DNA from: a virus
Taxonomy: Duplodnaviria; Caudoviricetes
Direction: 5' to 3' (one strand)
DNA: 64,000 bases
Virus record (IMG/VR): IMGVR_UViG_2706795974_000001
Location: 9,753-73,752 of that record
Shown here: one piece after another, positions 59,687 to 64,000 of the stretch
How the letters are laid out: every line of letters starts with the position of its first letter
How positions within the stretch are numbered: the first letter of the stretch is position 1
The notes under the pieces: model-generated
Database searches by the model: none
What the model was told of the DNA's origin: nothing
What the model saw: the letters and a program-made list of their open reading frames with translations, nothing else
Position numbers and translations under genes: made by a program

Positions 59687-59726
59687 GTGTGCTTCCCCTT
59701 TCGGTGGTGACTGGGACTAGGTTGAG

Positions 59727-59764
59727 AACAGCCCCTGCCACATCCCATGATGGCAGGGGCTGTT
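59727..59764. terminator. 14-bp hairpin
   Basis: AACAGCCCCTGCCA / TGGCAGGGGCTGTT. Confidence 0.6.
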
Positions 59765-59766
59765 AG

Positions 59767-59846
59767 TGGCCGGGTGAGAATCGAACTCACGCAGGTGTGG
59801 GTGCCCTGATCCTTCCACCCTTCGCTACGCGTCGGGCACTCGGCCG
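59767..59846 (-). ncRNA. tRNA-like element (intact T arm, partial acceptor stem, non-canonical D/anticodon region)
   Basis: GTGAG-TTCGATT-CTCAC then CCGGCCA, pairing with 5' GGCCG. Confidence 0.5.
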
Positions 59847-59848
59847 AA

Positions 59849-59881
59849 CCTACCGGGCAGGCTGGTCACCTGCCCGGTAGG
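59849..59881. terminator. 13-bp hairpin downstream of the 314-aa gene
   Basis: CCTACCGGGCAGG / CCTGCCCGGTAGG. Confidence 0.6.
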
Positions 59882-59887
59882 GTAGTG

Positions 59888-60939: not shown

Positions 60940-60955
60940 TGTGATCTACGTCACA
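60940..60955. promoter_or_regulatory. CRP/GlxR consensus site
   Basis: TGTGA-TCTACG-TCACA within CGGTGTGA..TCACACCG. Confidence 0.6.
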
Positions 60956-60961
60956 CCGTGC

Positions 60962-61042
60962 CTAATCCCGCCGTGCGAACGTTGCCCACACGATAGCCGC
61001 GATGACCAACACGACGAAAAGGTGCCCACCGTGGAAGATCAC
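60962..61042 (-). CDS. 26-aa single-TM peptide
   Basis: GTGA overlap; MIFHGGHLFVVLVIAAIVWATFARRD. Confidence 0.5.
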   Translation of the reverse strand: MIFHGGHLFVVLVIAAIVWATFARRD

Positions 61043-61197
61043 CTGATCACGTCCGAACGTGTCCAGCCAGTGGTCGCCGGTTCCACGCCGGACGCCATGA
61101 GGCGCTCGAGTTCCCGTTTTTCGCCGCGCCGGAGTCGGCGTCCTCGGTGGTCCTGGTTGGTCACGCGGGCGCTGTTGCGCTTGATCGTCTTGCTCAT
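61039..61197 (-). CDS. Small Arg-rich protein (52 aa)
   Basis: Extended RBS ACCGAAAGGG; MSKTIKRNSARV... Confidence 0.6.
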   Translation of the reverse strand: MSKTIKRNSARVTNQDHRGRRLRRGEKRELERLMASGVEPATTGWTRSDVIR

Positions 61198-61313
61198 TGT
61201 TGCAACCCTTTCGGTGTTGGTGCCGGTTGTGCTGAGTCGGATGACTCCCGCCTAAACGTAGGGCAGTGTTTCACGTGAAACACTGCCCTACGCGGCTGGT
61301 ACATCCGCTTTTA
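61198..61313. repeat. Intergenic cassette copy 1, with parS in a 36-bp palindrome
   Basis: TGTTTCACGTGAAACA at 61267-61282; palindrome 61257-61292. Confidence 0.85.
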
Positions 61314-61631
61314 GAACGCCTGCCGGTTGTTGACGTACTCGTGCGCCCAGCCGCTGTCATCGCGCGAGGTCCGAACCACGCCCTGGGCATCGAACCACAG
61401 CTCCATGTAGCTACAGCTGTAGTCGCACTCGTCGCGCTCGAGCTCGAGGACCACGCAACGGTTAACCTCGGCGAGCTCGTCGTCGTCCCAGTCCTCGCGT
61501 GCTCGACGCGGTACCCAACCGATTACGGTCAGCGCCTGCATAGCGTCGATCACGCGGCTTGTCTGTCGCTCGGTCCAGCACGCTGTGAACGCCTCGACGA
61601 CAACCTCGCGCTCTGCCACGATTGAAAACAT
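61311..61631 (-). CDS. Hypothetical protein
   Basis: Extended RBS ACCGGAAGGG. Confidence 0.65.
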   Translation of the reverse strand: MFSIVAEREVVVEAFTACWTERQTSRVIDAMQALTVIGWVPRRAREDWDDDELAEVNRCVVLELERDECDYSCSYMELWFDAQGVVRTSRDDSGWAHEYVNNRQAF

Positions 61632-61731
61632 GTTGCAACCCTTCCGGTGTTGGTTATGCGAGTCGGATGACTCCCGCGAACGCTCGATGTTTCACGTGAA
61701 ACATCGAGCGCCGCTGGTACACCCGCTTCTA
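61631..61731. repeat. Intergenic cassette copy 2, with parS in a 30-bp palindrome
   Basis: TGTTTCACGTGAAACA at 61688-61703; palindrome 61681-61710. Confidence 0.85.
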
Positions 61732-61733
61732 GA

Positions 61734-61922
61734 TCAGTTGTCGATCACGGTCACGTCGTTGATGTCTACCAGGTCATAGTCGCCTGTGTCCCACAGAACG
61801 TTAACGATGTTGTCGTGCGCGAAGCCGTCTGGATCAACGGCCGGATATTCGACTACGGTCCCCTGGATATGCGGCTCGTTCGTGAAGAAGACACGGGCAT
61901 TAGTGCGAACGGTTGCGTGCAT
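61734..61922 (-). CDS. Small SH3/KOW-like protein
   Basis: RVFF..EPHIQGTVVE...VNVLWD.G....V. Confidence 0.55.
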   Translation of the reverse strand: MHATVRTNARVFFTNEPHIQGTVVEYPAVDPDGFAHDNIVNVLWDTGDYDLVDINDVTVIDN

Positions 61923-61944: not shown

Positions 61945-62352
61945 CTACGCGGCGCGACGACGGGCAAGGCGTGCCTTGTTACGGGCACGACGACGGTCGG
62001 CGCGTTCACGCGCGATACGGGAATCGGACTTCTTCGGCGCGGGCCGAACGGGCCGGGTGCGGATCACAGGTGCGTTCTGGATGTCTTCGATCATCCTTTC
62101 ACGTTCGCGCTTCGCGTAGAAAGCGCGCGCCAGCTCGTCGGGATCGTTCGACACAATGGGGTCGCCGCCCAGGTGCCAGTTGTTCTTGTTAATGGCCTCG
62201 TTGTTGTTGGCGTCGATCTGGTTCAACTCGGCGCCGGTGTTGCCAAGGTTGGCTGATAGTGGGGTCGGACGTGTTGCGGTAACGGACTGGCGCGCTGTTA
62301 CCTTCACGTCGCGCAGAACGCCATAGCCGTGCCCGTTGATGTTGTGCTTCAT
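61945..62352 (-). CDS. Hypothetical protein with Arg-rich C-terminus
   Basis: Extended RBS ACCGAAAGGG; first gene below the non-coding region. Confidence 0.65.
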   Translation of the reverse strand: MKHNINGHGYGVLRDVKVTARQSVTATRPTPLSANLGNTGAELNQIDANNNEAINKNNWHLGGDPIVSNDPDELARAFYAKRERERMIEDIQNAPVIRTRPVRPAPKKSDSRIARERADRRRARNKARLARRRAA

Positions 62353-62954: not shown

Positions 62955-62970
62955 TGTGATCGTTCTCACA
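62955..62970. promoter_or_regulatory. CRP/GlxR consensus site
   Basis: TGTGA-TCGTTC-TCACA, 5 bp upstream of TTGACT. Confidence 0.6.
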
Positions 62971-63032
62971 AACCATTGACTAGTGGTACTAGTTGTGGTA
63001 TCACGCGCCTCATGTGGTATAGAAAGGTGTGT

Positions 63033-63291
63033 GTAGTTGAGGGTTGCAACTACCCGCCGGCGTCAGGGTAGTTGAGGGTTGCAACTACCCGCCGGCGTCA
63101 GTGTAGTTGAGGGTTGCAACTACCCGCCGGCGTCAGTGTAGTTGATAGTTGCAACTATGTGGTTGGTACAATGAGTGGTACAAAGTAGTTGAGGGTTGCA
63201 ACTATGTGGTTGGTACAATGAGTGGTACAAAGTAGTTGAGGGTTGCAACTATTATGTAGCGAGTCATAGTAGTTGCAATGTGCAACTACTA
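63033..63291. repeat. Tandem array of GTAGTTG-N7-CAACTA(C/T) palindromes with 35- and 47-bp periods
   Basis: Copies at 63033, 63068, 63103, 63138, 63185 and 63232, plus a variant inverted repeat at 63267-63291. Confidence 0.9.
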
Positions 63292-64000
63292 GGTAAGCCT
63301 TACCTGAGTAGACATGTGTCTAGACATCCGTCCAGTGGGCGGTTTGTACCAGTGGTTGTAGCAGAGCAATGGTTGGTACAAACGAGGGTCGGCGGAGTGT
63401 ACATCGTGGCGTGCGGATTGACAAATTGTGAAGTCCAATATGTGGGATGAGCGGCCATTTTTCGACGGTTACCGAGAGGCGTGTGTAACGCGCGTTTACC
63501 GTGGTCGGAGGTGGTACTAGTCGGTTACCGGACCTGCCTGTAACGGCCGCTCGTGGACGAAAATTGATGTTTGGGCATACGGGGTACCAAAAGGGGGTCT
63601 AGGCCGTTAGCGTGCGATCTAGGGGGCAGAGCACACATTCTCGTTTTTGTCAAACCGGCCCGCAAACCCTAGATGTAGGGTTGAGAGTTGACATTCTCGC
63701 CCAAATGTGCATTGATTCGTAAATATGCGCTATCTCAAATGTCTGGTTTACTATCGTGAATGTTTGGTCATGAGAAAAAAATGAGTTTGTTATGAGGAAC
63801 TTCTAGTTTCGGCGCAGCGCACTTTTAGTTTCGGTCACCCGAAAAGTCGTTGTACGTTGCAACGAAAATTATTGTTCGGCGCGCCGAAACTTTATTGTTC
63901 GGTGGGCCGAAACTTCGTTGCGACTTGCAACTAAATCGAGTTTACCAGCGTGAATCTGGGATGCAACTTTGGAAAGGGGATTGCGGCTAGCGAAGCTCTC

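Follow-up and report, generated by a model that had tools for sequence, protein, structure and literature searches.

Two parS palindromes in the early region of Woes

The window analyzed here, a stretch of 64,000 nucleotides, is from Gordonia phage Woes and matches Woesvirus-group phages of Gordonia at 95-98%. It covers bases 9753-73752 of a virus record of 73,752 bp that carries direct repeats at its ends. Woes belongs to subcluster CS3, has G. terrae 3612 as its host and a genome of 73,752 bp with a 184-bp terminal repeat (PMC5559632). It is classed as a lytic phage. The early genes at the right end of the window are small, lie on the minus strand and form a leftward operon that runs from the right genome end. 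Two sites of the chromosomal parS type were found in this early operon, within 440 bp of each other; the right end of the genome is 2.0-2.5 kb away. The features of this region are as follows (coordinates are those of the window):

61039-61197, minus strand: gene of a 52-aa basic early protein (phrog_9304) with an arginine-rich stretch, downstream of Module A and the same in phages that have parS and phages that lack it
61232-61311, minus strand: Module A, an intercistronic stem-loop that separates the genes of the 106-aa and 52-aa proteins (folding energy -53.7 kcal/mol, z -5.6)
61257-61292, no strand: perfect 36-bp palindrome of parS-1, in which 10-bp GC-rich arms (CGTAGGGCAG/CTGCCCTACG) enclose the core
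61267-61282, no strand: parS-1, an exact 16-bp host-type putative ParB site, invariant in eight aligned CS3 genomes
61311-61631, minus strand: gene of a 106-aa acidic early protein (phrog_12137) between the two parS modules, a divergent allele
61658-61729, minus strand: Module B, the other stem-loop copy, which separates the genes of the 62-aa and 106-aa proteins (folding energy -46.4 kcal/mol, z -5.0)
61681-61710, no strand: perfect 30-bp palindrome of parS-2, in which 7-bp arms (CGCTCGA/TCGAGCG) enclose the core
61688-61703, no strand: parS-2, an exact 16-bp host-type putative ParB site with a central variant in the phages Newt and Bianmat
61734-61922, minus strand: gene of a 62-aa early protein (phrog_15601), upstream of Module B
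61945-62352, minus strand: gene of the 135-aa first early protein (phrog_10038) with an arginine-rich C-terminus, conserved at 99-100% identity whether or not a phage has parS

The first-pass annotation of the window had described a 16-mer present twice, each copy centered in a perfect palindrome (36 and 30 bp) with arms that differ. Reading of the sequence and a mismatch scan confirmed this: TGTTTCACGTGAAACA has exactly two copies in the window, with no further site at up to two mismatches and none expected (100 shuffles), and neither palindrome extends beyond its 36 or 30 bp. In the complete 73,752-bp genome the 14-mer core likewise has two copies, both within parS-1 and parS-2. Each Woes site matches the chromosomal-type parS palindrome TGTTNCACGTGAAACA at 16 of 16 positions, so that the tips of the two hairpins are alike (16/16) while their arms are unrelated (CGTAGGGCAG vs. 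CGCTCGA). The core is A+T-rich and is set in G+C-rich stems. A random 16-bp palindrome would equal parS with a probability of 4^-8 (~1.5e-5).

Profile searches of the complete genome with PF02195, PF17762, TIGR00180, and PF13614 (ParB_N, ParB HTH, ParB, and ParA-type ATPase) gave no matches, and the annotation of Hello, a phage 97% identical to Woes, contains no integrase, repressor or partition gene. The lack of parA, parB and integrase, first noted for the window, thus extends to the complete genome. On the basis of the profile searches, a phage-encoded ParB or ParA was rejected, and so was a phage or plasmid ParABS partition cassette, as no ParB/ParA of its own adjoins the sites or occurs elsewhere in the genome. 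A temperate plasmid-prophage was rejected in view of the gene content of the near-twin Hello. The Hello annotation lists a sliding clamp, a DnaQ-like subunit, a helicase and a primase; since no catalytic DNA polymerase is annotated, Woes probably depends on the host replicase.

Several other elements were observed in the right arm. The parS sites are 1.3-1.8 kb away from an array of iteron-like repeats and a segment rich in A+T. In the 1.6-kb non-coding right end, positions 63031-63278 hold six copies of the palindromic unit TAGTTGAGGGTTGCAACTA with spacing classes of 35 and 47 bp, an array that could serve as an origin or as an operator array. The genes that start at 61197 and 61631 also have the core of this repeat unit, GTTGCAAC, overlapping their ribosome-binding regions. 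Immediately 5′ of the first early gene, the A+T-rich segment 62353-62480 carries nested perfect palindromes (AATAACAATTAATTAA...TTAATTAATTGTT and AAACCGTTCAATTC...GAATTGAACGGTTT), with weak, sub-threshold Rfam matches. Perfect CRP/GlxR-type boxes (TGTGA-N6-TCACA) are located at 60940-60955 and 62955-62970, each in a non-coding part of the early right arm; the window contains no others, and 0.09 are expected in it. On the minus strand of an intergenic region at ~59700-59887, two long hairpins enclose a T-arm like that of a tRNA (GTGAGTTCGATTCTCAC) together with a stem resembling an acceptor stem. The same tRNA-like region occurs at L123:1323-1530 and L124:2077-2284, and ARAGORN made no tRNA call for it.

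A conserved stem-loop module with variable tips

Each parS site forms the tip of a ~75-nt module located between small early genes, and the window contains two copies of this module and no more. On the sense (minus) strand both copies consist of the upstream stop codon, box1 GCGGRTGTACCAGC, a long hairpin and box2 GGGAGTCATCCGACTC; in Module A the order is box1 GCGGATGTACCAGC, long hairpin, box2 GGGAGTCATCCGACTC. In both cases box2 is followed on its 3′ side by a spacer of ~25 nt and then by GAAAGGGTTGCAAC and the ATG of the next gene. The TGGTACA motif of box1 (plus strand; 61295-61308 and 61713-61726) recurs in the non-coding right end at 63160-63390, where, for example, TTGGTACAATGAGTGGTACAAAG is present twice. 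This motif may be a common protein-binding or promoter element.

Further CS3 phages (Lahirium, Anamika, Bianmat) and phages of subcluster CS2 (Monty, BirksAndSocks, Hotorobo, Jellybones, BenoitCattle, Chelms, GourdThymes) have the same module with its boxes at the corresponding place, and their hairpins differ in sequence from those of Woes. Alignment of 12 modules yielded a consensus structure of 23 pairs, 11 of which have changed on both sides. Paired cells amounted to 95.7% on the consensus structure vs. 83% in shuffles and at most 41% with slid partners, and the observed covariation score was reached by none of 500 shuffles. The closing helix between box1 and box2 covaries as well, from CCGGATG/CATCCGG in Monty to CCAGACG/CGCCTGG in BenoitCattle. 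On the sense strand the alignment contains 10 G.U cells vs. 5 A.C mismatches, and in MrWormie the change 61263 G>A in the parS-1 palindrome allows G.U pairing in RNA of the minus strand but not of the plus strand. The earlier proposal that the hairpin arms are selected for pairing is therefore upheld by the compensatory changes in 11 of the 23 pairs of the CS2/CS3 module.

An intrinsic (Rho-independent) terminator was rejected, as the modules have no U-tract (tails UUUAGG and UUCGCG) and a terminator scan was negative at both of them. Rfam gave no credible match at the modules. In IMG/VR the box2 pattern was found, besides chance matches, in BirksAndSocks and Hotorobo only, and the two matches to the module pattern in metagenomes, both in unrelated sequence, appear to be due to chance. 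Judged from its pairing, the module is most likely a conserved structured RNA element of the early mRNA, of the processing or stability hairpin kind.

The tips of the module have a different distribution from its pairing. Seventeen phages are 99.5-100% identical to Woes across the cassette, and two sites were present in all six of those whose complete records were scanned, including Newt, in which site 2 has one central mismatch. Bianmat, which lies outside the Woes group, has one module with a CATGTG variant and a second module without parS. In the entire records of Lahirium, Monty, BirksAndSocks, Kvothe (CS4), and GTE7 (CS1) there was no site at up to three mismatches, and the module tips of Anamika, Hotorobo, Jellybones, BenoitCattle, Chelms, and GourdThymes are without parS. 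Among the CS1-CS4 genomes examined, parS was thus retained in the near-clonal Woes group only, and its conservation therefore carries little weight. The search for the core in related phages, as suggested in the first-pass annotation, was positive within the Woes group and negative in Lahirium, Anamika, Monty and other CS2 phages; beyond the immediate lineage the hairpin of the CS2/CS3 modules stays but the core does not, which largely corresponds to an outcome that the same annotation had listed as a refutation of its reading. That reading is weakened by this and is supported in part. In this comparison only one tight group, made up of Woes and its 17 near-identical phages, has the parS tip, and the hairpin module is evidently older than its parS tip, because relatives keep the module with other tip sequences.

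The tip is normally unconstrained, because the two modules of Anamika have identical arms and flanks and different tips. In Woes the situation is reversed: the tips are identical and the arms unrelated, and this pattern is thus not expected from plain duplication and drift. A tip that is usually unconstrained yet identical in both Woes modules argues for sequence-specific selection or for two separate acquisitions. The Woes hairpins are also longer (30-36 nt vs. 24-28 nt in relatives), which together with the A+T-rich core is as expected for insertion of a palindrome at the loop. The variant of site 2 in Newt and Bianmat is 61696 G>A on the plus strand, i.e., CACGTG>CATGTG on the sense strand (C-to-T). 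It falls inside the RNA hairpin loop, where it leaves the RNA fold unaffected, and it strikes the center of parS.

A phage-encoded factor might also recognize the core, either as a DNA operator or as an RNA tip bound by an arginine-rich early protein in the manner of lambda N/boxB. Such a factor would fit the identity of the tips within one genome, the arrangement of a conserved linear box and then a hairpin, as in nut sites, and the arginine-rich stretches in the first early (135-aa) and the 52-aa proteins. However, these two proteins are 98-100% identical between phages with and without parS, i.e., whatever the tip, so there is no co-variation; since the same arginine-rich proteins occur in phages with different tips, antitermination of the lambda N/boxB type that co-varies with the tip was rejected. 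The sole lineage-specific gene of the cassette encodes the acidic 106-aa protein, which counts against a phage factor as well, and the exact identity with host parS would be left as a coincidence. We regard a phage-encoded factor as very unlikely. The 106-aa protein shares 41% identity with its counterpart in parS-less relatives, has no Pfam family above the cut-off, belongs to one PHROG without assigned function and has a low-confidence Atlas model; neither Pfam, PHROG nor this model established a link of its gene to ParB.

parS in the host family and in other viruses

An endolysin-based scan yielded two close relatives of Gordonia, namely Tsukamurella sputi and a Williamsia MAG. The exact 14-mer was present in 183 of 201 genomes sampled from the GTDB family of the Williamsia MAG, with one to nine copies per genome. 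In the genomes listed from this sample the copies were clustered, and the reversed 14-mer used as a control was found in none of them. In Williamsia and Tsukamurella the 14-mer cluster is located 1-4 kb upstream of parB. Natural parS variants in the parB-adjacent clusters of these two related host genomes never vary at the position that is changed in Newt and Bianmat. Thirteen of the 15 host sites sampled extend the palindrome by 2 bp or less. Its frequency in the family and its proximity to parB identify the 14-mer core as the family's parS, and from this we infer that the same sequence is also G. terrae's own parS. The host-type identity of the Woes sites, claimed in the initial reading, is in this way supported at the level of the family.

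The function of the sequence is known from C. glutamicum, in which ten identical 16-bp consensus sites recruit ParB as detected by ChIP, whereas sites with three or more mismatches do not (PMC7083940). A single parS site is enough, ParB spreads up to 16 kb on each side, and ParB is required for SMC loading (PMC7083940).

Host-type parS sites were observed in many other viruses. The exact 16-mer was detected in at least 119 IMG/VR contigs vs. 2 for the reversed, equally palindromic control, which makes the control ~60 times rarer. A ParB_N match was found in 2 of the 46 IMG/VR records checked and was absent in 12 of the 13 records that are at least 90% complete. On these IMG/VR counts, orphan sites of the host parS type would seem to occur widely in phages and to have received too little study. 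Viral sites with a palindrome at least 3 bp longer on each side than the 16-mer numbered 13, vs. ~2.5 expected, and in five loci from unrelated viral contigs (L077, L065, L109, L049, and L078) the parS 16-mer is centered in longer perfect palindromes. The location of parS at a hairpin tip may thus be a recurrent arrangement.

Some of these records have features of their own. In L077, L065, and L109 the palindromes are followed by T-runs, which gives them the look of terminator hairpins. Two small, low-G+C IMG/VR records with inverted terminal repeats may be phi29-like. A 64-kb viral genome of 72% G+C (G233, locus L090), rated 100% complete, contains three exact parS sites within 620 bp and has neither a ParB_N match nor a relative among isolated phages. 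The high-G+C contigs with multiple orphan parS sites (L090 and L078) had no match among isolated actinophages.

The same data bear on whether the identity with parS could be a neutral by-product of chance or recombination. The element would then work only as an RNA stem-loop, and ParB may bind it inconsequentially. This would account for the conserved pairing of a module whose tips differ by lineage, for the restriction of the parS tip to a near-clonal group and for the tolerance of the central mutation of Newt and Bianmat, which lies in the RNA loop; moreover, in a scan of ~250,000 windows a few chance matches to the 16-mer are expected. It does not readily account for a common 16/16 tip on two hairpins with unrelated arms, for an A+T-rich tip in a G+C-rich stem, for the probability of ~1.5e-5 given above or for the rarity of the reversed control in viral contigs. 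Taking both sides together, we consider a neutral by-product possible and somewhat unlikely.

Candidate roles of the parS tips and known systems

In the reading that we prefer, and for which we see the chances as evenly balanced, a parS palindrome took over the loop of an RNA hairpin and, as duplex DNA, loads host ParB. The older module would most likely be an RNA element of the early polycistronic transcript, a hairpin with a part in processing, stability or attenuation, comparable with those between T7 early genes. The parS palindrome would have come to occupy the loop of both module copies in the Woes sublineage, lengthening the stem, and the RNA structure would tolerate it because a palindrome at the loop extends the stem without disruption. 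As duplex DNA, the parS tips would provide two nucleation sites for host ParB-CTP, which would load there and spread across the early region and the right end. The spread ParB would tie the phage DNA to the ParA/SMC segregation machinery of the host, as Spo0J is implicated in doing for phi29. What the phage would likely gain is that its genomes are positioned or inherited in slow-growing or dividing cells, and a secondary possibility is that ParB would be titrated away from the host origin.

Loading of host ParB by the Woes sites is plausible because ParB binds the same sequence in related hosts (PMC7083940). It is supported by the 16/16 match, which occurs twice and is absent elsewhere in the genome, and by the lack of a phage ParB/ParA. 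Against it stand the absence of the core outside one tight group, the success of parS-less relatives on the same host strain and the change of Newt and Bianmat in the central CACGTG, at a position that is fixed in the parB-adjacent clusters of two related hosts. Perfect palindromes of 30-36 bp could also extrude as cruciforms, which would destroy the duplex site. In vivo ParB binding and any benefit to Woes are what we infer from these observations. The near-isogenic phages share a common laboratory host and thus represent natural controls by parS dose: two intact sites in Woes and Hello, one intact site and a center mutant in Newt, one mutant site in Bianmat and none in Anamika and Lahirium.

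The two sites might instead act as a regulatory roadblock or a sensor of the host state, with ParB and the CRP/GlxR-type boxes throttling early transcription in a non-growing host. This would be akin to Spo0A on phi29 and to KorB/ParB silencing on plasmids. ParB-CTP clamps are weak roadblocks for RNA polymerase, which counts against such a role, and the parS-less relatives retain the same operon. In its favor, both sites fall within the presumed early transcription unit, in successive intergenic regions. The region is flanked by the two perfect TGTGA-N6-TCACA boxes, and in phi29 the early promoters are repressed through sites for a host protein, the Spo0A boxes (PMC2731898). On balance, a roadblock or sensor function seems to us highly doubtful.

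An extension of ParB loading, which we hold to be unlikely, is that Woes-type phages have an alternative infection program similar to that of phi29, by which a supposedly virulent phage would be maintained as a segregating episome until the host grows again. The CRP/GlxR-type boxes would sense the starved host and restrain the early operon, and the two parS sites would let the idle phage genome ride the ParABS/SMC system of the host into both daughter cells. If this were true, a centromere in an RNA-hairpin loop would be a general means to add a DNA site to a compact operon.

Should host ParB load as in our preferred reading, hitchhiking on the host centromere, as known for phi29, would be extended to actinobacteriophages and non-sporulating hosts, and the sites would offer a concrete, mutable handle on the persistence and positioning of lytic-phage DNA. 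An RNA stem and a DNA centromere in one sequence would also be an instructive case of overlapping codes.

Elements comparable to the module are known from other phages. The RNase III hairpins of T7 early genes and the nut boxA/boxB of lambda are long, irregular, conserved stem-loops with flanking boxes and no U-tract, and the Woes modules are likewise intercistronic stem-loops with conserved boxes that lack a U-tract. They differ in that the Woes module has no match in Rfam, and in that the elements of T7 and lambda are not known to double as a host centromere. Centromere-like sites on a phage genome are shared with the plasmid-prophages P1, N15, and those with the parABS of the mycobacteriophage RedRock type (PMC7157519); these are temperate and carry their own ParA/ParB and their own parS, whereas Woes has neither protein and uses the sequence of the host. 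With the ParB-CTP/SMC system of C. glutamicum, Woes shares the identical 16-bp sequence, one copy of which loads ParB and SMC in that organism (PMC7083940). On Mycobacteriales chromosomes the sites are located by oriC/parB, whereas in Woes they are on a phage and inside perfect palindromes of 30-36 bp.

The closest parallel is the Bacillus phage phi29, which has five host-type parS sites bound by Spo0J of its host and for which Spo0J was implicated in the segregation of the phage genome into the prespore (PMC2731898, citing Meijer et al., 2005). The use of host centromere sites by a lytic phage is therefore a principle already established by phi29 and is not new; in the literature we found no description of host-parS use by an actinobacteriophage. 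Both phages are classed as lytic, have no partition genes of their own and carry several copies of the host ParB site. Both also have sites of other host regulators near early genes, and the combination of CRP/GlxR-type boxes and parS in Woes recalls that of Spo0A boxes and parS in phi29. Differently from phi29, the host of Woes is a non-sporulating actinobacterium, so that spore entrapment cannot be the purpose. Woes has two sites, no more than 440 bp apart, in the early operon, where they form the tips of RNA-type hairpins that are conserved, and they are limited to one sublineage. Compared with phi29, Woes is of interest for the probable dual RNA/DNA use of the element, for a host that does not sporulate and for the natural series that leads from phages with two intact sites through one to none.
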